Below, in pieces: positions 1-10,901 of a stretch of 10,901 bases of DNA. Origin of the DNA: a virus (lineage: Duplodnaviria; Heunggongvirae; Uroviricota; Caudoviricetes). The stretch is from the IMG/VR virus record IMGVR_UViG_2869970738_000002, one strand, 5' to 3'. Under the pieces are notes generated by a model. It was not told where the DNA came from. It made no database searches and saw nothing but the letters and a program-made list of their open reading frames with translations. Position 1 is the stretch's first letter; each line of letters begins with the position of its first letter. A program made the translations under genes and the position numbers.

Positions 1-1119
1 TCAAATAACCAGCTTAACCCATTCCTGACCTCGAGTATCGTTATAGCGATCGGTGGTTGCCTGGACTTTATGTCCTAGTAATGTTTTTGTATCGATACCC
101 TGTGCACGGTACAGCCGTTCTGATAGAGAGCGTTGTTCATGAAATGTTGGCGGAGTTTTTCCTGCTGGTGGAATTATCCCAGCCAGATCCCGTGCTTTGG
201 CAAAGTAGTCGCTCAGGTTGTCTTTACTCATCGGCTTCGGTTGTTTCTGGTGCCGACTATGGATTAGATATGGACTTAATATTCTGTCTCGGCACCCATC
301 AATAACTTCTTTTAACGTTATCCCAATGGCATCACAGCGTAGTGTAAGCGGTAACGCCAGACGCATTCCGGTTTTTCCCTGGGTGATATGCAAGTGTTCG
401 TTCCACACATCTGAAAAACGCATGTGGCAAATGTCATCACGGCGCTGACCAGTAACAATCGCAAGAAGCATTGCGTTACGGATAAAGTGTTTTTCAGGCG
501 TTGCATTGTAAATTTTTTGCCAGTCTTCCATGGTGAGCCTGGCTCTGGTTACTTTAGGGATCGGTTTACGGGTAGCCTCCGGAGGATTCCATCCAGGAGG
601 AACTTCCCCTGCATGCTGTGCTTCTTTATAAATATCAACCCATAATCCACGATTTACTCTCGCTGTGCTGACCATGTCTTTATCCAGCCACTCATCCAGT
701 ATTAATGCAAAGTCTCTTACTTCCAGTTCTTTCAATGGGTGGTTTCCCAGACGGGAAACTAGGTATGCAGCCATTCGAGTTTTTTCTTTGTGAGTTGTAG
801 CTGCAATATCTCCATTTTTCAGTCGCGTGTCCTGTATTTTCAGATATCGATCAACCCATGCCTTTAATCTGATACCCCGACGTTTTGTTGCTGACGGACT
901 TTCATCAATTTTGCGCATGAAATATTCAGCTTCTGCTGCAGCTATTCGCTGATTGGCTGTGGAAGCGATTTTTTCTGCCTTACCTTTGTCTGTTCCGAGT
1001 CCGTGAAATTTTCCAGTCACAGGATTTTTATACTGGTAGTAAACTCTGCCAGTTCTGCGATCAAACTTTTCGTAAAGACCGGCTACGTCAGTGCTGTTTT
1101 TTTGTGGCCTCGGTGACAT
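1..1119 (-). CDS. int: Lambda-family tyrosine integrase (prophage Int), complete
   Basis: 372-aa ORF with ATG at 1119-1117 and TGA at 3-1. The C-terminal catalytic region (LLAIVTGQRRDD...PPTFHEQRSLSERLY...LLGH...TTDRYNDTRGQEW) aligns by eye with lambda Int (AVVTGQRVGDL...PPTFHELRSLSARLY...LLGH...QYRDDRGREW). The N-terminal YYQYKNPVTGKFHGLG resembles the lambda Int arm-binding region. Confidence 0.9.
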   Translation of the reverse strand: MSPRPQKNSTDVAGLYEKFDRRTGRVYYQYKNPVTGKFHGLGTDKGKAEKIASTANQRIAAAEAEYFMRKIDESPSATKRRGIRLKAWVDRYLKIQDTRLKNGDIAATTHKEKTRMAAYLVSRLGNHPLKELEVRDFALILDEWLDKDMVSTARVNRGLWVDIYKEAQHAGEVPPGWNPPEATRKPIPKVTRARLTMEDWQKIYNATPEKHFIRNAMLLAIVTGQRRDDICHMRFSDVWNEHLHITQGKTGMRLALPLTLRCDAIGITLKEVIDGCRDRILSPYLIHSRHQKQPKPMSKDNLSDYFAKARDLAGIIPPAGKTPPTFHEQRSLSERLYRAQGIDTKTLLGHKVQATTDRYNDTRGQEWVKLVI

Positions 1120-1666: not shown

Positions 1667-2172
1667 CCTCGCGCATACAACCGGGCAGTGATGTGATTGT
1701 CTGCGCTGAAATGGACGAACAGTGGGGCTACGTCGGTGCTAAATCACGTCAGCGCTGGCTGTTTTACGCGTATGACAGGATACGGAGGACGGTTGCGGCG
1801 CACGTCTTCGGTGAACGCACTCTGGCCACACTGGAGCGTCTTCTGATCCTGCTGTCGGCCTTTGAGGTCGTGGTATGGATGACGGATGGCTGGCCGCTGT
1901 ATGAATCACGCCTGAAGGGAAAGCTGCACGTTATCAGCAAGCGTTACACTCAGCGCATTGAGCGACATAATCTGAATCTGAGACAACATCTGGCAAGGCT
2001 GGGACGGAAGTCACTGTCGTTCTCAAAATCGGTGGAGCTGCATGACAAGGTCATCGGGCATTATCTGAACATAAAACACTATCAGTGGATTTGCCCCTAT
2101 ATTTCCAGACATCTGTTATCACTTAACCCATTACAAGCCCGCTGCCGCAGATATTCCCGTGGCGAGCGATAA
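1585..2172 (+). CDS. insB: IS1 InsB frame, with a 28-aa C-terminal extension read into the inserted IS2
   Basis: The frame ...[58 protein letters not shown]...[12 protein letters not shown] matches InsB. The native TAA stop is displaced by the IS2 insertion after CACTATCAG, so the frame continues [11 protein letters not shown]... to 2172. Confidence 0.75.
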
Positions 2173-3002
2173 CCCAGCGCACTATGCGGATGCCATTCGT
2201 TATAATGTTCGAACGCCTCTGCAAGGTTCTTTGCTGCCGTTAACCCGTCTGGTTTGGGCATGATACTGATGTAGTCACGCTTTATCGTTTTCACGAAGCT
2301 CTCTGCTATTCCGTTACTCTCCGGACTCCGCACCGCCGTGTTCTTCGGTTCAAGTCCCAACATCCGGGCGAACTGGCGTGTTTCATTAGCCCGGTAGCAT
2401 GAACCATTATCCGTCAGCCACTCCACTGGAGACGACGGAAGATCGTTGCCGAAGCGGCGTTCCACCGCTCCCAGCATGACGTCCTGTACTGTTTCACTGT
2501 TGAAGCCGCCGGTAGTCACCGCCCAGTGCAGTGCCTCACGATCACAGCAGTCCAGCGCGAACGTGACACGCAGTCTCTCTCCGTTATCACAGCAGAACTC
2601 GAACCCGTCAGAGCACCATCGCTGATTGCTTTCTTTCACGGCCACTCTGCCTGTATGTGCCCGTTTCGATGGCGGTACAGCAGGTTTTCGCTCAAGCAAC
2701 AGCGCATTCTGGCGCATGATCCGGTAAACACGTTTGGCATTGATCGCAGGCATACCATCAAGTTCTGCCTGTCTGCGAAGCAGCGCCCATACCCGACGAT
2801 AACCATACGTGGGCAGCTCTCCGATAACATGGTGTATACGGAGAAGCACATCCGTATCATCAGTGTGACGACTGCGGCGGCCATCCATCCAGTCATCGGT
2901 TCGTCTGAGAATGACGTGCAACTGCGCACGCGACACCCGGAGACAACGGCTGACTAAGCTTACTCCCCATCCCCGGGCAATAAGGGCGCGTGCGCTATCC
3001 AC
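2097..3002 (-). CDS. insD: IS2 transposase InsD (OrfB)
   Basis: 301-aa [46 protein letters not shown]...; DDE-type IS3-family transposase lying inside the IS2 ends. Confidence 0.95.
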
Positions 3003-3325
3003 TTTTTTGCCCGTCCATATTCAACGGCTTCTTTGAGGAGTTCATTTTCCATCGTTTTCTTACCGAGCAGGCGCTGGAGTTCTTTAATCTGCTTCATGGC
3101 GGCAGCAAGTTCAGAGGCAGGAACAACCTGTTCTCCGGCGGCCACAGCAGTAAGACTTCCTTCCTGGTATTGCTTACGCCAGAGAAATAACTGGCTGGCT
3201 GCTACACCATGTTGCCGGGCAACGAGGGAGACCGTCATCCCCGGTTCAAAGCTCTGCTGAACAATTGCGATCTTTTCCTGTGTGGTACGCCGTCTGCGTT
3301 TCTCCGGTCCTAAGACATCAATCAT
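2960..3325 (-). CDS. insC: IS2 InsC (OrfA; helix-turn-helix regulator / N-terminal part of the InsCD fusion)
   Basis: Within track ORF 2960..3370 the protein starting [56 protein letters not shown] is 121 aa. It overlaps insD, as expected for a -1 frameshift pair. Confidence 0.9.
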
Positions 3326-3439
3326 CTGTACTCCAATGACTAGTCTAAAAACTAGTATTAAGACTATCACTTATTTAAGTGATACTGGTTGTCTGGAGAT
3401 TCAGGGGGCCAGTCTAATCAGTAAGTTGGAGTCATTACC

Positions 3440-4457
3440 CGCCGACTGCCTGGAATTTATCTGGTCGTTACCCGAAAATTCTGTTGACCTGATAGTCACG
3501 GACCCGCCGTACTTTAAAGTGAAGCCTGAGGGCTGGGATAACCAGTGGAAGGGCGACGATGATTACCTGAAGTGGCTGGACCAGTGTCTGGCGCAGTTCT
3601 GGCGGGTGCTGAAACCTGCCGGAAGTCTTTACCTGTTCTGTGGTCATCGCCTGGCATCTGATATCGAAATCATGATGCGTGAACGCTTCAGTGTGCTGAA
3701 CCATATTATCTGGGCGAAGCCGTCCGGACGCTGGAACGGATGCAACAAGGAAAGCCTGCGGGCGTATTTCCCCGCCACAGAGCGCATTCTGTTCGCGGAA
3801 CATTATCAGGGGCCGTATCGTCCGAAAGATGCCGGGTATGCGGCGAAGGGCAGTGCACTGAAACAGCATGTGATGGCCCCGCTGATTTCTTACTTTCGTG
3901 ATGCGCGAGCTGCCCTGGGGATAACGGCAAAACAGATTGCAGATGCCACAGGAAAGAAAAACATGGTGTCGCACTGGTTCAGTGCCAGTCAGTGGCAGTT
4001 GCCGAATGAAAGCGATTATCTGAAATTACAGGCGCTGTTTGCCCGGGTGGCAGAAGAGAAGCATCGGCGTGGTGAACTGGAAAAGCTCCACCACCAGCTG
4101 GTGGATACGTATACCTCACTGAACCGGCAGTATGCGGAGCTGCTGAGTGAATATAAACATCTGCGGCGGTATTTTGGCGTGACGGTGCAGGTGCCGTATA
4201 CCGATGTGTGGACGCATAAACCGGTGCAGTTCTATCCCGGGAAACATCCGTGCGAAAAACCGGCAGAAATGCTGCAGCAGATAATCAGCGCTAGCAGTCG
4301 TCCGGGTGACCTGATTGCAGATTTTTTCATGGGGTCGGGTTCGACAGTGAAAGCGGCACTGGCGCTCGGGCGTCGTGCAATTGGCGTTGAGCTGGAGACT
4401 GAACGTTTTGAGCAGACGGTTCGGGAAGTACAGGATTTAGTCAGCCAGAACGGATGA
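3440..4457 (+). CDS. Orphan DNA methyltransferase (N6-adenine/N4-cytosine class, beta-type motif order), 5' end replaced by IS1/IS2 sequence
   Basis: Motif IV DPPY (SVDLIVTDPPYF) lies near the N-terminus and motif I FxGxG (DFFMGSGST) near the C-terminus. The track ORF 3282..4457 starts at a GTG inside IS2, and native sequence begins at the IS1 boundary (3440) at ...ADCLEF. No restriction endonuclease gene is adjacent. Confidence 0.75.
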
Positions 4458-4459
4458 TA

Positions 4460-4488
4460 TTGAAGAATTAATTACGAGTCGTTATTAT
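4460..4488 (+). promoter_or_regulatory. Sigma70-like promoter immediately upstream of the tRNA cluster
   Basis: TTGAAG (4460-4465), a 17-bp spacer, then TATTAT (4483-4488); the first tRNA starts at 4498. Confidence 0.4.
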
Positions 4489-4497
4489 GCGGCTCCC

Positions 4498-4573
4498 GGC
4501 CCTTTAGCTCAGTGGTGAGAGCGAGCGACTCATAATCGCCAGGTCGCTGGTTCAAATCCAGCAAGGGCCACCA
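4498..4573 (+). tRNA. ileZ: tRNA with anticodon CAU (Ile2 lysidine-type or Met; ileZ-like of lambdoid phages)
   Basis: 76-nt cloverleaf folded by hand: acceptor GGCCCTT/AAGGGCC, D-arm GCTC...GAGC, anticodon loop CTCATAA, T-arm GCTGG-TTCAAAT-CCAGC, 3' ACCA. Confidence 0.85.
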
Positions 4574-4580
4574 TCACATA

Positions 4581-4657
4581 CCGCCATTAGCTCATCAGGA
4601 AAGAGCGCCAGCCTTCGAAGCTGGCTGCGCGGGGTTCAAGTCCCCGATGGCGGTCCA
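4581..4657 (+). tRNA. argN: tRNA-Arg (anticodon UCG; argN-like)
   Basis: 77-nt cloverleaf: acceptor CCGCCAT/ATGGCGG (unusual C1-G72 pair), anticodon stem CCAGC/GCTGG with loop CTTCGAA, T-arm CGGGG-TTCAAGT-CCCCG, 3' TCCA. Confidence 0.8.
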
Positions 4658-4670
4658 TTATCTGCATCAT

Positions 4671-4747
4671 GCGTTGTTAGCTCAGCCGGACAGAGCAATT
4701 GCCTTCTAAGCAATCGGTCACTGGTTCGAATCCAGTACAACGCGCCA
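4671..4747 (+). tRNA. argO: tRNA-Arg (anticodon UCU; argO-like)
   Basis: 77-nt cloverleaf: acceptor GCGTTGT/ACAACGC, anticodon stem ATTGC/GCAAT with loop CTTCTAA, T-arm ACTGG-TTCGAAT-CCAGT, 3' GCCA. Confidence 0.85.
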
Positions 4748-4762
4748 CACTTATTTTCCCTG

Positions 4763-4787
4763 GCTCGCTTTTGCGGGCTTTTTTTTT
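4763..4787 (+). terminator. Rho-independent terminator after the tRNA cluster
   Basis: Stem GCTCGC / GCGGGC with a TTTT loop, followed by a run of nine T (4779-4787). Confidence 0.6.
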
Positions 4788-5013
4788 AAATGTCTCACAA
4801 TTCAGACGGTTGACTGTTGTCTGGTTTGCGGGGAGTTTGTTAAAAGAAACTGGCATGGTGAATCCCCCTGTGCGGAGGGGCAATCAGCGAGTAGGTATAT
4901 GGGATAATCGCGGATTCAGGTGCTGGTACTGAATTCACCGGGAGGCACCCGGCACCATGCAATGGCACATAGCGCCACTCTCCAGCCCCTCTCCGGAGGG
5001 GCTTTCTTGTGGG

Positions 5014-5043
5014 CAAAAAAAGCCCGCGCTGGGAGACGCGGGC
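5014..5043 (-). terminator. Minus-strand Rho-independent terminator with no annotated upstream gene
   Basis: On the minus strand GCCCGCG-TCTCCCAG-CGCGGGC (7-bp GC stem) is followed by TTTTTTT; the plus strand shows AAAAAAA 5014-5020 before the hairpin 5022-5043. Confidence 0.55.
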
Positions 5044-5236
5044 GGCAAGGAATAAACAACAAAACGTGAAGTAATATTTCAGCTGGCGAATAATACCCCA
5101 TAGTAATCACTCTGCGCAACTGCGCGGTCTTTTTCGAATTGCGGGCTGTCGTCTCTCTTCTGCCATTGTCCTGTAACTTCCGGACTTCAGCCCGCTCCTC
5201 ATTTTACTCACAATATTATCCCGGCCGGGAGGATTC

Positions 5237-6625
5237 ATGGCTTTTAAACACTATGATGTTGTCAGGGCGGCGTCGCCGTCAGATCTTGCGGAAAAGCTGA
5301 CACATAAACTGAAAGAGGGCTGGCAGCCGTTTGGTAGTCCGGTGGCCATAACCCCTTATACTCTGATGCAGGCGATTGCAGCAGAAGGTGCAGTAATCAG
5401 CGCCACCAGCGACCCGGAGTATTACTTTGTTGTGGTTCTGGCAGGGCAGTCAAACGGCATGTCGTATGGTGAAGGCCTTCCGCTGCCGGGGACATATGAC
5501 CGTCCGGACCCGCGTATTAAGCAACTGGCGCGTCGCAGTACGGTGACACCGGGCGGTGCAGCATGCAAATATAACGACATCATTCCGGCGGACCATTGTC
5601 TGCATGATGTGCAGGACATGAGCCGTCTTAACCATCCGAAAGCGGACCTGTCAAAGGGGCAGTACGGAACCGTGGGGCAGGGGCTGCATATCGCCAAAAA
5701 ACTGCTGCCGTTTATACCGGCGAATGCGGGCATTCTGCTGGTTCCATGCTGTCGTGGTGGTTCAGCGTTCACCACCGGAGCTGATGGCACATACAGTGAC
5801 GCGAGTGGTGCCTCGGAGAATTCAACCCGCTGGGGTGTGGACAAGCCGCTGTATAAGGACCTTATCGGTCGAACAAAAGCGGCACTGGAGAAGAACCCGA
5901 AAAATGTGCTGTTTGCCGTGGTGTGGATGCAGGGGGAATTTGATTTTGGCGGTACGCCGGCAAATCATGCCGCACAGTTTGGTGCGCTGGTTGATAAATT
6001 CCGTGCAGACCTGGCGGATATGGCAGGCCAGTGCGTCGGTGGCTCTGCTGGCGGTGTTCCCTGGATATGCGGGGACACGACGTATTTCTGGAAGCAGAAG
6101 AACGAATCCACGTACCAGACGGTGTACGGCAGCTATAAAAATAAAACGGAAAAGAATATCCATTTCGTACCGTTCATGACCGATGAGAACGGGGTGAATG
6201 TGCCGACGAACAAACCGGAAGAAGACCCGGACATTCCGGGTATCGGTTATTACGGTTCGAAATGGCGTGACAGCTCAGCCACCTGGACGTCACAGGACAG
6301 GGCGAGCCATTTCAGTTCATGGGCTCGCCGTGGGATTATTTCCGACCGTCTGGCAACGGCGATTCTGAGCTGCGCGGGTAAGTCTTCTGCGTTTGTTAAT
6401 GGTACTGCCGGGGTGGTTGTTCCAGACAGGCCGGTTACCACCTCAGAGTCTGTAATTTTTTACGATGCCAAAAAAGCTACAGACAATCAGCTGAAACCTT
6501 ATGGCTGGGACGGTATGTATGGCAGACGCACACTGGTTGATGACAGCGGCAATAAAGCTCTGCGAATTGAGAAAAATAACAGCTCGAAATCTTGGTCAAT
6601 GTACTGTGAGGTGTACTGGCAATAG
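5237..6625 (+). CDS. Prophage NanS-p-like sialate O-acetylesterase (DUF1737-like N-terminus plus SASA/SGNH GQSN domain); 3' end fused to IS600, probably C-terminally truncated
   Basis: ATG at 5237 preceded by GGGAGG. Protein has the motif VVLAGQSNGMSYGEG and an N-terminal MAFKHYDVVRA...LKEGWQPFGSP module. Sits directly downstream of the ileZ-argN-argO tRNAs, as nanS-p does in lambdoid and Stx prophages. The last 19 nt (6607-6625), including the stop, lie inside the IS600 terminal repeat. Confidence 0.75.
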   Translation: MAFKHYDVVRAASPSDLAEKLTHKLKEGWQPFGSPVAITPYTLMQAIAAEGAVISATSDPEYYFVVVLAGQSNGMSYGEGLPLPGTYDRPDPRIKQLARRSTVTPGGAACKYNDIIPADHCLHDVQDMSRLNHPKADLSKGQYGTVGQGLHIAKKLLPFIPANAGILLVPCCRGGSAFTTGADGTYSDASGASENSTRWGVDKPLYKDLIGRTKAALEKNPKNVLFAVVWMQGEFDFGGTPANHAAQFGALVDKFRADLADMAGQCVGGSAGGVPWICGDTTYFWKQKNESTYQTVYGSYKNKTEKNIHFVPFMTDENGVNVPTNKPEEDPDIPGIGYYGSKWRDSSATWTSQDRASHFSSWARRGIISDRLATAILSCAGKSSAFVNGTAGVVVPDRPVTTSESVIFYDAKKATDNQLKPYGWDGMYGRRTLVDDSGNKALRIEKNNSSKSWSMYCEVYWQ

Positions 6626-7503: not shown

Positions 7504-7806
7504 TTAACGCGTATTTTTCAGCGACTCCTGTGCAAAATACGCTGTTGCTTTTTTTAATATATCTCGCTCAAGGCGAGCTTCATTTAACGCCTTACGCAGT
7601 TGCAGAATTTCAGATTCCAGTTCAGCCACCGTGCGGGAACCAGGAGTACCGAGCCCTTTTCTGGCGGCGGTAACCCATTGTCCTAAAGTGCCTTCAGGAA
7701 GGGATAATCGGGAAGCGCCTTCACTGATCGAAAGTTGATTTTCAAGAACCGTTCTGACAGCTTCGGCTTTGAACTCTTTAGAGTAACGTTGGTTTTTTCT
7801 GCTCAT
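7504..7806 (-). CDS. IS600-like OrfA (helix-turn-helix transposase subunit)
   Basis: 100-aa ORF MSRKNQRYSKEFKAEAVRTVLENQLSISEGASRLSLPEGTLGQWVTAARKG...; identical protein encoded at 10599-10901. Confidence 0.9.
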   Translation of the reverse strand: MSRKNQRYSKEFKAEAVRTVLENQLSISEGASRLSLPEGTLGQWVTAARKGLGTPGSRTVAELESEILQLRKALNEARLERDILKKATAYFAQESLKNTR

Positions 7807-7870
7807 TATTAGCTCCTTCTGATGCCATTCTATTTCAGGAAGGAGTGTCCGTTAAACTCAGGCTACCTCA

Positions 7871-8359
7871 TATGTCGGGCGCTCATCCGGTATAAGGGAT
7901 CGCGTTCTTAATATCAATGAAACCGCTGATGTATGGTCTTATGCTTACGGTAATAATTTGCTAACTCTGTCATCAATATATAACCGAAGAATAATGGTTA
8001 TCTGCCTGGTGTTTGGTTGCCGACAGCAGGAGGCGAGGCTATCCACCTGGGACGAATGGGATTTAAAAAACTGGGTATGGACAGTCCCAAAAGAGCACAG
8101 CAAAAACAAGGAGGCTATAGTAAGGCCTGTTCCTGACGGAATAAAACAATGGATCGTTAATCTTTACGCAGAAACAAAAAATCGCGGTTATGTTGTCGGT
8201 TGTGCTTTGCAAAGGGCGACAATAACAGGGGCTGCAAACAGAATATGCAGGCGTCTTGGTCATGATACTAATGGCTTGTGGTGCATACATGATTTCAGGC
8301 GCACATTTTCCACTACGCTTAATGATATGGGGGCGGATCCTTATATTGTCGAACTTCTT
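7871..8359 (+). pseudogene. Internal fragment of a second, different tyrosine integrase, truncated at both ends by IS600 and IS1
   Basis: Frame is open from the IS600 boundary to the IS1 boundary. Encodes ...ICLVFGCRQQEARLSTWDEWDLKNWVWTVP...HDFRRTFSTTLNDMGADPYIVELLG, corresponding to the Int catalytic core (compare lambda AVVTGQRVGDLCEMKWSD...HELRSLSARLY...LLGH). The fragment ends before the LLGH histidine and the catalytic Tyr. Confidence 0.7.
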
Positions 8360-8414
8360 GGTGATGCTGCCAACTTACTGATTTAGTGTATGATGGTGTT
8401 TTTGAGGTGCTCCA

Positions 8415-8690
8415 GTGGCTTCTGTTTCTATCAGCTGTCCCTCCTGTTCAGCTACTGACGGGGTGGTGCGTAACGGCAAAAGCACTGCCGGACATCAGCG
8501 CTATCTCTGCTCTCACTGCCGTAAAACATGGCAACTGCAGTTCACTTACACCGCTTCTCAACCCGGTACGCACCAGAAAATTATTGATATGGCCATGAAT
8601 GGCGTTGGATGCCGGGCAACTGCACGCATTATGGGCGTTAGCCTCAACACGATTTTACGTCACTTAAAAAACTCAGGCCGCAGTCGGTAA
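8415..8690 (+). CDS. insA: IS1 InsA
   Basis: 91-aa [46 protein letters not shown]... Confidence 0.95.
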
Positions 8691-8734
8691 CCTCGCGCAT
8701 ACAGCCGGGCAGTGACGTCATCGTCTGCGCGGAA

Positions 8735-9112
8735 ATGGACGAACAGTGGGGATACGTCGGGGCTAAATCGCGCCAGCGCTGGCTGTTTTACGCGTATGAC
8801 AGGCTCCGGAAGACGGTTGTTGCGCACGTATTCGGTGAACGCACTATGGCGACGCTGGGGCGTCTTATGAGCTTGCTGTCACCCTTTGACGTGGTGATAT
8901 GGATGACGGATGGCTGGCCACTGTATGAATCCCGCCTGAAGGGAAAGCTGCACGTAATCAGCAAGCGATATACGCAGCGAATTGAGCGGCATAACCTGAA
9001 TCTGAGGCAGCACCTGGCACGGCTGGGACGGAAGTCGCTGTCGTTCTCAAAATCGGTGGAGCTGCATGACAAAGTCATCGGGCATTATCTGAACATAAAA
9101 CACTATCAATAA
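8735..9112 (+). CDS. insB: IS1 InsB frame (C-terminal part of the InsAB' transposase; the true product arises by -1 frameshift at 8664-8672)
   Basis: Track [95 protein letters not shown]...HYQ. A TAG at 8639-8641 in this frame lies upstream of the frameshift site and does not affect the fusion product. Confidence 0.85.
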
Positions 9113-9127
9113 GTTGGAGTCATTACC

Positions 9128-9521
9128 GGCGTTGCAGATGCTTGATGATGATGAAAAGGGAGTAAATTTAACTTACACCCCAGGAGGAAATCAGAATATG
9201 AGAATTATCTCTGAGTCAGGTTTCTACAAACTAATAGCCCGCAGCCGCAAAGCAACGACGCCTGGCACATTTGCTCATCGTTTCAGTAACTGGGTATTCA
9301 GAAATGTGATACCAGGTATCAGAAAAACGGGGACTTATGGTATCCCGTGGGGTGCATTACAGGATTTTTCCCGCCGTAAAGAGCAATATCAAATAAGTGC
9401 CAGCGAGAAGGGGAGGGAGCTACAGGCATGTAAGCGCAAAAAGCGTGAGCAGGAGGAAGAAGAAAAAACGCTGATACGTGAATATCAGCCTGAGTTTTAC
9501 TTTGGTAACCGCATTCAGTGA
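9128..9521 (+). pseudogene. Bro-N domain (phage antirepressor-like) protein, N-terminally truncated by IS1
   Basis: Native sequence begins at the IS1 boundary: ...LDDDEKGVNLTYTPGGNQNMRIISESGFYKLIARSRKATTPGTFAHRFSNWVFRNVIPGIRKTGTYG matches the conserved C-terminal half of Bro-N domains (pattern LDDDEKGV...IISE.GLY.L..RSRK...F..WV...V.P.IRK.G.Y). The first 5 codons of track ORF 9114..9521 are IS1-derived. Confidence 0.6.
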
Positions 9522-9551
9522 CAAAACAAAGGCGACCGCAAAAGGGTCGCC
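9521..9551 (-). terminator. Rho-independent terminator for the minus-strand two-gene operon, convergent with the Bro-N fragment
   Basis: Hairpin GGCGACC-GCAAAAG-GGTCGCC (9531-9551); on the minus strand it is followed by TTTGTTTTGT (plus ACAAAACAAA, 9521-9530). Confidence 0.5.
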
Positions 9552-9617
9552 AGTGGGAACAAGGGAAAACAAAAGCATCACCAACAATGCCACATTTGCG
9601 GCTGGTGGGCAATGTGA

Positions 9618-9797
9618 TCAGTCAGATTTGGTTCGTTCCAAGGTTTGCAACGAGAGCTTTTTCCTGTGCTCTTTAAGGAATTTCTCAAGAGCAAACGAAC
9701 AAGGTGCGAATCTTTCTGATTCATGTTCATGCGCTATATTTTTGCGTCGTCTCTTACGAGTTGGTGATGGTGTTTTGGTTGATTCTGTGTCGCTCAT
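9618..9797 (-). CDS. Hypothetical 59-aa highly basic protein, not in the supplied ORF track; second gene of the minus-strand operon
   Basis: Hand translation of the minus strand: ATG at 9797-9795, MSDTESTKTPSPTRKRRRKNIAHEHESERFAPCSFALEKFLKEHRKKLSLQTLERTKSD, TGA at 9620-9618. AGGA lies about 8 nt upstream of the ATG. It starts 57 nt after the stop of the 101-aa gene and ends 67 nt before the terminator. Contains AGA x2, CGA x2, AGG and ATA codons. Confidence 0.35.
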   Translation of the reverse strand: MSDTESTKTPSPTRKRRRKNIAHEHESERFAPCSFALEKFLKEHRKKLSLQTLERTKSD

Positions 9798-9854
9798 GGT
9801 GCTGTCCTGTAAAGCAATGCGCCTGCGTTCCTCAAACTATGGCGCTGATATTGG

Positions 9855-10160
9855 CTATTCATGCTCTTTGACCTTGCGTCGCTGGAGTTCTTCACGCGCG
9901 ACGGTGACGAGTTGCCCGATCTCCTCGGCTGCTTTGATGCCGATTTGTTCGACCTTAGCCAGGGCATCCAGTGACGACACAAGGGGATTTTCTCCGCTGC
10001 CTTCTGCTTGGCGGCGGGCCATTTCTCCGCGCATGGCGGTTACGATAAATCCGGCATTGCTTTCACCGTCCAGCTTAACGGATTCCATCCCTTGCATAAC
10101 ATCTAGTGGGACTCTGACAGTTGTCAGTTGTGATTTTGCGTTTTTGTTAGCCGTTGCCAT
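9855..10160 (-). CDS. Hypothetical 101-aa protein with an Arc/Mnt/CopG-like ribbon-helix-helix N-terminus (putative DNA-binding regulator)
   Basis: ATG at 10160-10158 with AGGAG 8 nt upstream. The N-terminus LTTVRVPLDVMQGMESVKLDGESNAGFIVTAMRGEMARR fits the RHH pattern of beta-strand, helix, G-x-S-x-N turn, helix (compare Arc ...FNLRWPREVLDLVRKVAEENGRSVNSEIYQRVMESF). The C-terminal half is predicted helical and charged. Confidence 0.55.
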   Translation of the reverse strand: MATANKNAKSQLTTVRVPLDVMQGMESVKLDGESNAGFIVTAMRGEMARRQAEGSGENPLVSSLDALAKVEQIGIKAAEEIGQLVTVAREELQRRKVKEHE

Positions 10161-10180
10161 TTCTGAAACTCCTAATCATC

Positions 10181-10260
10181 GGTGTGTTTCAGTATACACA
10201 AAAAAAGAAATACAAAAAGCCTTGACGTGTGTTTCATGCGCTCATAACATGAAACACACC
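10181..10260. promoter_or_regulatory. Divergent promoter region with three copies of GTGTGTTTCA (two direct, one inverted), a putative operator array
   Basis: GTGTGTTTCA at 10182-10191 and 10227-10236, with the inverted copy TGAAACACAC at 10250-10259. Copies 2 and 3 form a perfect 12-bp inverted repeat (10227-10238 / 10248-10259, 9-bp spacer) overlapping a plus-strand promoter TTGACG (10222-10227), 17 bp, TAACAT (10245-10250). Copy 1 lies between a minus-strand TATACT -10-like element and the RHH gene RBS. Confidence 0.4.
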
Positions 10261-10350
10261 GAAAGGATTGTTGAAATACAAAGAGCAACGCCCCGCAGTG
10301 CTGGGAACACATACGGGGCGTCTAACCAACAACGTAAACTAGGAGCCGTT

Positions 10351-10542
10351 ATGGTTGCTGTAAATCATATACCACACCTTGTACACACACAAACGGCCTT
10401 TGTGTGGCGTTTTCTGGCACTGAGTGCCGGAGAATCTCAAATCATCCACGTAACCGCCTGGACGGAACGCGAAGCGCGTAGCCGTTGCCCGTCCGGTTGT
10501 GTTGCTGTATTCGCTGCAAAAATCCGCCAGGGAGTGAGGTAG
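10351..10542 (+). CDS. Hypothetical small protein, divergent from the RHH gene; 3' end runs into IS600, probably truncated
   Basis: ATG at 10351 with AGGAG 5 nt upstream (10341-10345): MVAVNHIPHLVHTQTAFVWRFLALSAGESQIIHVTAWTEREARSRCPSGCVAVFAAKIRQG.... The last codons and the stop (10540-10542) are inside the IS600 left end, which begins at 10535. It is the 3' part of the long track ORF 9478..10542, whose upstream portion I consider non-coding. Confidence 0.35.
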   Translation: MVAVNHIPHLVHTQTAFVWRFLALSAGESQIIHVTAWTEREARSRCPSGCVAVFAAKIRQGVR

Positions 10543-10901
10543 CCTGAGTTTAACGGACACTCCTTCCTGAAATAGAATGGCATCAGAAGGAGCTAATAAT
10601 GAGCAGAAAAAACCAACGTTACTCTAAAGAGTTCAAAGCCGAAGCTGTCAGAACGGTTCTTGAAAATCAACTTTCGATCAGTGAAGGCGCTTCCCGATTA
10701 TCCCTTCCTGAAGGCACTTTAGGACAATGGGTTACCGCCGCCAGAAAAGGGCTCGGTACTCCTGGTTCCCGCACGGTGGCTGAACTGGAATCTGAAATTC
10801 TGCAACTGCGTAAGGCGTTAAATGAAGCTCGCCTTGAGCGAGATATATTAAAAAAAGCAACAGCGTATTTTGCACAGGAGTCGCTGAAAAATACGCGTTA
10901 A
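10535..10901 (+). mobile_element. Second IS600-like IS3-family copy, partial in window (left 367 bp), inverted relative to the copy at 6607-7870
   Basis: Starts TGAGGTAGCCTGAGTTTAACGGACACTCCTTCC..., identical to the reverse complement of 7870 downward; flanking sequence diverges exactly at 10535. Continues past the window end. Confidence 0.85.
10599..10901 (+). CDS. IS600-like OrfA (second copy)
   Basis: 100-aa ORF identical to the protein encoded at 7504-7806 on the minus strand; stop TAA at 10899-10901. Confidence 0.9.
   Translation: MSRKNQRYSKEFKAEAVRTVLENQLSISEGASRLSLPEGTLGQWVTAARKGLGTPGSRTVAELESEILQLRKALNEARLERDILKKATAYFAQESLKNTR

Follow-up and report, generated by a model that had tools for sequence, protein, structure and literature searches.

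Results

ORF59 and its neighbors on the minus strand

The stretch of DNA analyzed here, IMG/VR virus record IMGVR_UViG_2869970738_000002 (10,901 nt, the whole of which we call the window), carries on the minus strand at 9797..9618 a 59-codon open reading frame (ORF), ORF59, with an ATG start, a TGA stop, and the product MSDTESTKTPSPTRKRRRKNIAHEHESERFAPCSFALEKFLKEHRKKLSLQTLERTKSD. The comparisons presented below argue that ORF59 is a genuine translated small gene under purifying selection. A Shine–Dalgarno-like AGGA, read from the sequence, lies at 9805..9808 (minus strand), 7 nt upstream of the ATG. Upstream of ORF59, on the same strand and in the same reading frame, is ylcI (9855..10160, minus strand), which encodes a 101-residue ribbon-helix-helix (RHH) protein of the YlcI/YnfO family (NF041551, E = 6.5e-16; phrog_6522, E = 6e-64). 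The gap between the two genes is exactly 57 nt in the window and in every homologous locus with a ylcI match, and the CAGG core of the Shine–Dalgarno sequence is identical in 22 of 22 variant spacers. Downstream of ORF59, an intrinsic terminator of the ylcI-ORF59 transcript (9521..9551, minus strand) is made up of a stem at 9551–9531, GGCGACC-loop-GGTCGCC, followed by TTTGTTTTGT. The same or an equivalent hairpin and T-run is found in most homologues, 75 to 95 nt downstream of ORF59 in most loci, and the 3′ untranslated region has a fold z-score of –3.3. An original prediction made from the letters of the window had described the start codon, the Shine–Dalgarno sequence, the operon-like spacing after an RHH gene, and the downstream terminator without stating the strand, and it was correct in all of these.

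The spacer between ylcI and ORF59 contains a conserved inverted repeat (9819..9845, minus strand) that is 9 bp long in most variants and 5 bp long in the window, with 91.5% of cells paired and a fold z-score of about –1.9. Its G-U pairs occur only on the ORF59-sense strand, and AUUGCUUUAC comes next. The repeat may be a processing site or a weak attenuator. We attribute the frame shared by ylcI and ORF59 to the antisense frame described below, because that frame imposes in-frame-only indels. A YlcI-ORF59 fusion produced by stop-codon read-through in the shared frame was set aside; the window spacer holds a second in-frame stop.

Conservation and substitution pattern of ORF59

Our sample of homologues consisted of 90 loci from E. 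coli genomes, IMG/VR, and one Shigella genome, which gave 56 distinct sequences and 33 distinct coding sequences. The original prediction had raised the question of whether the frame is broken among homologues; we found it intact in all 56 distinct sequences, with the ATG and the stop position kept and a product of 57 to 60 residues, and every indel among the 33 coding sequences is in-frame. Pairwise differences at codon positions 1, 2, and 3 were 0.127, 0.115, and 0.203, and the ratio of nonsynonymous to synonymous change (dN/dS) was 0.31 for ORF59, 0.48 for the coincident antisense frame, and 0.7–1.4 for the remaining frames.

The third codon positions of ORF59 coincide with those of the overlapping antisense frame, which is open in 33 of 33 variants. 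We therefore wanted to know on which of the two strands the amino acids are protected. On the tree, changes that are silent in ORF59 and replacing in the antisense frame occurred 25 times per 31 opportunities, approximately the rate of doubly silent changes, while changes that are replacing in ORF59 and silent in the antisense frame occurred 11 times per 41 opportunities, approximately the rate of doubly replacing changes (P = 0.002). The same asymmetry was observed in the controls, namely the icd-like gene (P = 0.0014), the 101-codon form of ylcI (P = 0.027), and, more weakly, its 59-codon form (P = 0.083).

It is improbable in our view that ORF59 is non-functional and that its openness and conservation are a by-product of selection on the antisense frame, which is of the P4 eta type, together with in-frame-only indels. 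The coinciding third positions and the invariably open antisense frame favor this explanation, as does the absence of stops from the ORF59 frame over a further 46 codons downstream. The NCBI Prokaryotic Genome Annotation Pipeline (PGAP) omits ORF59 in the genomes closest to the window, and elsewhere it calls a pseudogene on the antisense strand. Nor is openness informative by itself, as a 59-codon stop-free frame with the antisense frame open arises in 34% of codon shuffles. We conclude that the openness of ORF59 alone is not beyond chance and that its conservation and substitution pattern are. The ATG, the Shine–Dalgarno core, and the stop position are kept while flanking codons vary; it is the amino acids of ORF59 and not the antisense ones that are selected, as strongly as those of accepted genes; a core motif of the protein is invariant; and the terminator lies at a fixed distance. 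Other points tell against the gene besides the shuffles. The substitution tests relied on parsimony and a neighbor-joining tree of recombining, related sequences, with small counts, and six database copies of ORF59 (P0002, P0007, P0018, P0029, P0032, and P0034) are frameshifted, either within their last third or near the middle. Because some copies are frameshifted and half of the cassettes described below lack the gene, ORF59 is dispensable. We nevertheless regard the coding call as established.

The family to which ORF59 belongs is narrow. ORF59 matches phrog_21027 (E = 5e-15 when rounded from 5.2e-15; residues 5–46 aligned to profile positions 4–45 of 65), a family without a function, so that membership adds only an earlier sighting of the ORF in phage-like DNA. 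Its 29 protein clusters, which share 66–100% identity, are all from Escherichia and are named "hypothetical," and a profile search of 1.84 billion representative proteins returned nine matches, eight of them true relatives and one a spurious repeat protein. Matches to the ORF59 region are present in 1709 of 5426 complete E. coli genomes. PGAP annotates the protein in one genome, as WP_172806454.1.

A long antisense frame of the eta/kil type

Opposite ORF59 and ylcI, a stop-free frame of 354 codons runs along the plus strand from 9478 to 10542 and ends in an Icd-like/Kil domain. Nested at its 3′ end is a gene for an Icd-like cell-division inhibitor of the P4 Kil type (10352..10542, plus strand; NF033153, E = 1.1e-17), with an AGGAG 5 nt before its ATG. 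ORF59 thus has a division-inhibitor gene in its neighborhood. In the window, the start of the long frame overlaps the last 44 nt of a BRO-N gene fragment; its natural upstream partner has been lost to an insertion sequence (IS), IS1, and its last codons are cut off by a downstream IS.

The frame is open in homologous loci as well. Across 34 distinct sequences, the open stretch extends from a point upstream of the ORF59 stop across ORF59, the spacer, ylcI, and the ylcI-icd intergenic region. It continues uninterrupted into icd in 27 of the 34 and, counted by frame alone, is in frame with icd in 28. In five sequences the frame shifts and stops 19 nt before the icd ATG. Locus L083 is in frame with icd and stops about 100 nt upstream of it, and in locus L059 the nearest Icd-like match is in frame and the long frame runs about 560 nt past it. 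Stop codons are correspondingly rare in this frame relative to the two alternatives: the long frame, frame +1, and frame +2 contain 6, 148, and 158 stops in the ylcI-icd intergenic region, 0, 20, and 72 in the spacer, and 1, 66, and 75 in the loci without a match to the ylcI query. The length of the ylcI-icd intergenic region is 1 mod 3 wherever the fusion holds.

Sampling through the RHH gene gave a similar picture, with a median open length of 345 codons over 79 distinct loci, compared with 36 and 35 codons for the other antisense frames. In distant loci the frame spans 422 to 805 codons and starts inside the 3′ end of alpA. At its start it overlaps the upstream ORF by 10–71 nt in most loci where one was called, and alpA by 37–61 nt in loci L093–L095. 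These statistics, which we consider as firm as the coding call, indicate that the long frame is kept open by selection. Its amino acids are not protected over the parts that it shares with ORF59 and ylcI. The antisense pseudogenes that PGAP calls "Icd-like, partial" in some genomes reflect this frame.

The locus belongs to a phage-satellite remnant

Many E. coli genomes have chromosomal loci that match the 801 nt around ORF59 at 99.9% identity. Two intact copies, L001 and L002 (99.9% identical), carry an integrase gene, a helix-turn-helix (HTH) gene of the alpA type, a BRO-N gene, ylcI and ORF59 on the opposite strand, and the Icd-like gene, and continue with three small ORFs, DUF4222, primase, ssb, major capsid, decoration protein, HTH, and small terminase genes. 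The element in L001 and L002 sits in the portal gene of a lambdoid prophage, and other copies occupy chromosomal sites near cspD, ilvL, and roxA. A four-zone layout has been described for Gram-negative phage-inducible chromosomal islands (PICIs) and helper-embedded PICIs (PMC10111431). L001 and L002 have the Gram-negative PICI order, with int-alpA, Bro, primase, and late zones that are co-oriented.

From these identities and this gene order, we interpret window 7871–10538 as an IS-disrupted remnant of a Gram-negative PICI-type phage satellite. An internal fragment of the satellite integrase (7871..8359, plus strand) is 100% identical by BLAST to L001 9857–10345, and the segment from the 3′ part of the BRO-N gene to the icd-like gene (9127–10538) is 99.86% identical to L001. 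The BRO-N part itself (9127..9521, plus strand; Pfam Bro-N, E = 4e-8) has its 5′ end cut by the IS1 copy at 8360–9126, which splits the two satellite pieces. Inverted, 100% identical copies of an IS3-family element at 7504–7870 and 10535–10901 bracket the remnant, and the right-hand copy replaces the last codons of the icd-like gene. The gene alpA and the 5′ half of the BRO-N gene are deleted, and the window copy of the satellite is thus degraded. The original prediction had overlooked both this satellite context and the selected frame opposite ORF59.

The rest of the window is unusually dense in IS elements. A second IS1 copy at 1336–2084 is 90% identical to the copy at 8360–9108, and IS2-like orfA and orfB lie at 2097–3370. 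A second, different integrase gene (372 residues) is at 1..1119 on the minus strand.

YlcI and its operator-like repeats

In the window and in loci such as L026 and L036, YlcI is seen in forms of 59 and 101 residues; the long form, which is the one in the window, equals the short form plus a 42-residue insert just before the conserved tail RRKAKEQE. Between ylcI and the icd-like gene, operator-like repeats at 10179..10262 include three exact copies of GTGTGTTTCA, at 10182 (plus strand), 10227 (plus strand), and 10250–10259 (minus strand). The window has no other exact copies of GTGTGTTTCA, and the repeats include a 13-bp perfect inverted pair. They overlap a sigma-70-like promoter that faces the icd-like gene (10222..10250, plus strand; TTGACG-17-TAACAT), which was identified by consensus match only and is a candidate counterpart of P4 PLE. 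A scan of 9100–10600 against Rfam (E ≤ 1) detected no C4, isrK, or other RNA.

When loci are compared, the 9-mer repeats and the RHH β-strand residues vary in concert, giving at least 11 types; for instance, QLTTVRVP is found with TGAAACACAC, KKLEARVP with TGGCTGACAC, and QSVTARIA with TGTAAGACAC. Because repeat and β-strand co-vary, YlcI is probably a type-specific repressor. We found no functional study of YlcI, YnfO, or DUF3950 in the literature that we searched. The global repressor of Gram-negative PICIs has been called unclear (PMC6092414), and neither PMC6092414 nor PMC10111431 mentions the antisense RHH cassette or ORF59.

An RHH gene followed by a small partner at tight, fixed spacing also resembles a type II toxin–antitoxin pair, in which YlcI would be the antitoxin and ORF59 a small basic toxin that stabilizes the satellite, and the operator repeats are compatible with autoregulation. 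Set against this, scans of Pfam, NCBIfam, and PADLOC returned no toxin-family match for ORF59, half of the RHH genes have no partner, and frameshifted copies of ORF59 stand alongside intact ylcI. Operators placed over the icd-facing promoter, moreover, fit a switch and not simple autoregulation. We consider a toxin–antitoxin pair the least probable of the explanations weighed here.

The conserved part of the ORF59 protein

The ORF59 protein has a mass of 7.0 kDa, a pI of 10.0, and a grand average of hydropathy (GRAVY) of –1.42, and its N-terminal 22 residues have a net charge of +5. An AlphaFold2 model (mean predicted local distance difference test score, 68.6) has a disordered N terminus and helices at residues 12–29 and 31–58. 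Invariant residues cluster in E-x-E-x-E-R-F-A-P-C-x-F-x-L-E-x-F-L-K-E, and the conserved core is AP-C-x-F-A-L-E-x-F-L-K-E, a short helical motif, and not the arginine-rich stretch: RKRRRK is present in most Escherichia members and absent from the divergent P0035 and from the alternative ORFs described next. Binding of nucleic acid, one of the roles originally suggested for the protein, thus appears less likely, as the arginine-rich N terminus is not conserved in the wider family. The other suggested role, a membrane or toxic peptide, is unlikely given the GRAVY value and the lack of a hydrophobic segment (highest 15-residue Kyte–Doolittle hydropathy, 0.23).

ORF59 is carried by 36 of 73 distinct RHH cassettes. 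About eight further cassettes (IMG/VR loci L140–L145, L156, and L161 have such ORFs) place a different ORF of 69–75 residues at exactly +57 after the RHH stop, having only AP-x-x-F-A-L-[ED]-x-F-[LV] in common with ORF59; these alternative ORFs may be a distant branch of the ORF59 family. In the remaining cassettes the RHH gene is followed directly by the terminator. One ORF59 variant was found with different RHH and icd types, and ORF59 does not track repressor specificity. The E. coli assemblies L094 and L095 have tandem antisense modules with an 81-residue ORF59-like protein and the 101-residue YlcI, and L095 has a second ORF59-like ORF of 65 residues; a single antisense frame, about 800 codons long and beginning in the 3′ end of alpA, encloses all of these modules.

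Searches for relatives beyond this family were negative: Pfam, NCBIfam, and PADLOC scans of ORF59 gave no match, nor did tblastn against GenBank phages; a sequence-profile search of the PDB gave noise only; and the AlphaFold2 model had no meaningful match in BFVD. Residues 36–43, ALEKFLKE, loosely resemble the FtsZ C-terminal peptide, DIPAFLRK.

The distribution of ORF59 and of its motif raises the possibility, which we find rather doubtful, that ORF59 is a cargo effector on a lysogeny-state repressor transcript, like rex or sie, whose helical motif docks on a host or helper protein. Possible roles would be tempering of the Icd-like inhibitor, interference with the helper, or exclusion of other phages. 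Consistent with cargo, ORF59 is at the 3′ end of the cassette, is optional, and is independent of RHH and icd type; the short helical motif is the only element common to the alternative ORFs at the same position; and neither the Pfam and NCBIfam scans nor the AlphaFold2 model reveal a DNA-binding fold signature. The lack of any PADLOC defence-model match or functional-family match for ORF59 counts against it. With respect to the protein itself, ORF59 is most likely an optional accessory protein-binding factor of a module expressed in lysogeny and not a DNA-specific element, as far as we can infer, with the cargo effector as the chief alternative.

Rare codons and the tRNA genes of the window

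Six of the 59 codons of ORF59 are AGA (two), CGA (two), AGG (one), or ATA (one), as originally counted, and ARAGORN confirmed the CAU, UCG, and UCU tRNAs at 4498–4747, the genes ileZ, argN, and argO. From these two observations it had been proposed that the rare codons are an adaptation to the tRNAs of the window, in a protein that would be an arginine-rich nucleic-acid binder or a membrane or toxic peptide. The three tRNAs do read these codons; the rare codons are kept in most homologues (AGA29 in 32 of 33, ATA21 in 30 of 33); the rare-codon fraction of ORF59, 10.2%, is nominally enriched over the intact-satellite mean of 3.8% (binomial P = 0.025, uncorrected); and the N terminus has the positive charge noted above.

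The location of the tRNA genes speaks against such a dependence. They lie in a late region resembling that of Shiga toxin (Stx)-converting phages (3282–6625, plus strand), together with a DNA methylase gene and a nanS-p/yjhS-like esterase gene, and this fragment is unrelated to the satellite remnant, with three IS copies between the two. Only about 490 bp separate the tRNAs from the esterase gene, and there are no stx genes in the region. The genes flanking the tRNAs are the lowest in rare codons in the window (methylase, 1.0%; nanS-p-like gene, 1.9%), while integrase genes reach 8–11% (8.0% in the intact satellite and 11.3% in the window fragment) without a special explanation. In the helper prophage that hosts the closest intact copy, we examined 13 kb past the holin gene, a segment that passes through Q and reaches the early region, and no tRNA gene is annotated there; many copies of the satellite are at chromosomal sites away from prophages. 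Finally, the protein has no hydrophobic segment, and its arginine-rich stretch is missing from P0035 and from the alternative +57 ORFs. Adaptation to these tRNAs is unlikely; had it been real, it would have tied unrelated fragments of the window together. The rare codons appear instead to reflect AT-rich mobile DNA and possibly low expression, with no indicated dependence on the tRNAs of the window, and their conservation could result from low divergence or from selection for low expression. What stands of the original prediction is a real small gene that lies downstream of, and points the same way as, the RHH gene; its tRNA link is not supported, and its membrane or toxic peptide is unlikely.

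Discussion

A proposed switch model for the ylcI-ORF59 cassette

We favor, as fairly probable, a reading in which ORF59 is a real gene and an optional cistron in a PICI-type satellite with a P4-like eta/kil leader, and in which the locus works as a switch. ORF59 is the optional second cistron of a ylcI cassette that is opposed to the main operon (int, alpA, Bro, icd-like, and primase onward). The regulatory part of this reading and the role of ORF59 are hypotheses. In the quiescent state, the cassette would be transcribed from the ylcI-icd intergenic region and end at its own terminator, and YlcI bound to its type-specific repeats over the icd-facing promoter would repress icd and the genes for replication. 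Once alpA is turned on by a helper phage, transcription coupled to translation of the long frame would cross the cassette. By analogy with P4 Eta, such read-through would guard against early termination; it would also shut down the cassette, which is convergent with it.

A more specific version, which we put forward as a tentative possibility, is that ylcI and ORF59 form a protein immunity switch in many Gram-negative PICI-type satellites and supply the "missing" PICI repressor. Ribosome-coupled read-through from alpA, induced by the helper, and transcription of the cassette would be mutually exclusive because both use the same DNA, and ORF59 would act as a docking-motif linker between the switch and a conserved partner. 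Its partners in the docking-motif reading may be the conserved tail of YlcI, AlpA, or the Icd-like division inhibitor or its cellular target.

Several observations count against the favored reading. Our consensus scan found no promoter for ylcI, and when the spacer hairpin was tested for covariation, no pair had changed on both sides. The read-through part of the model cannot operate in the window because the upstream alpA driver is deleted. The confidence of the AlphaFold2 model of ORF59 is moderate only (predicted template modeling score, 0.34), and none of the structure and sequence relatives sought with that model in BFVD or by PDB profile searches gives ORF59 a function. Half of the RHH cassettes, finally, do without ORF59 altogether.

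Annotation of ORF59 is inconsistent, in that the gene is absent, "hypothetical," or overwritten by an antisense "Icd-like pseudogene," and a clear call improves it. Of greater interest is the architecture, in which the selected P4 eta-type leader of a widespread satellite family contains, in antisense orientation, a conserved cassette of two genes. If the model is true, three selected frames, comprising two genes and one leader, occupy opposite strands within some 500 bp. Because the effects of selection on the two strands are separable, the locus offers a clean example from nature of a long antisense overlap, and the cassette is a concrete candidate for the repressor called unclear in studies of Gram-negative PICIs.

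Comparison with known systems

In E. coli K-12, prophages DLP12 and Qin share the YlcI/YnfO (DUF3950) family with the window. The K-12 ylcI gene differs in having no ORF59 homologue downstream.

Switches that combine RHH proteins, antisense transcription, and small proteins are represented by Arc and Mnt of P22 with the sar antisense RNA and by c4-icd-ant of P1 with Lxc and Coi. As in our model, RHH repressors guard an icd- or ant-type promoter, transcription is convergent or antisense, and small proteins modulate the repressor. These systems have no sequence or fold relation to ORF59, and the architecture alone is alike.

Gram-negative PICIs such as EcCICFT073, together with helper-embedded PICIs (PMC6092414, PMC10111431), share with the satellite the order of integration, Bro, replication, and late genes as well as an AlpA activator.

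The closest parallel for the long frame is eta/kil of P4 (NC_001609), whose Kil matches NF033153 (E = 1.6e-21) and is the last part of a frame of 214 codons, which in turn overlaps the end of vis. In both systems, a long frame extends from the 3′ end of an alpA/vis-type gene to a Kil/Icd-like protein of about 65 residues, a constitutive-type promoter, a candidate one in the satellite, is located within that frame and upstream of kil or icd, and the frame stays open, as would fit a role of translation in shielding read-through transcription. The eta mechanism and CI-RNA immunity of P4 have been described (PMC10111431). The two systems differ in what the leader contains. No opposite-strand gene is annotated inside eta, where unannotated ORFs of 43–102 residues occur on the opposite strand, and P4 uses a same-strand CI RNA that pairs with seqA and seqC, whereas the satellite has an opposite-strand protein cassette instead.

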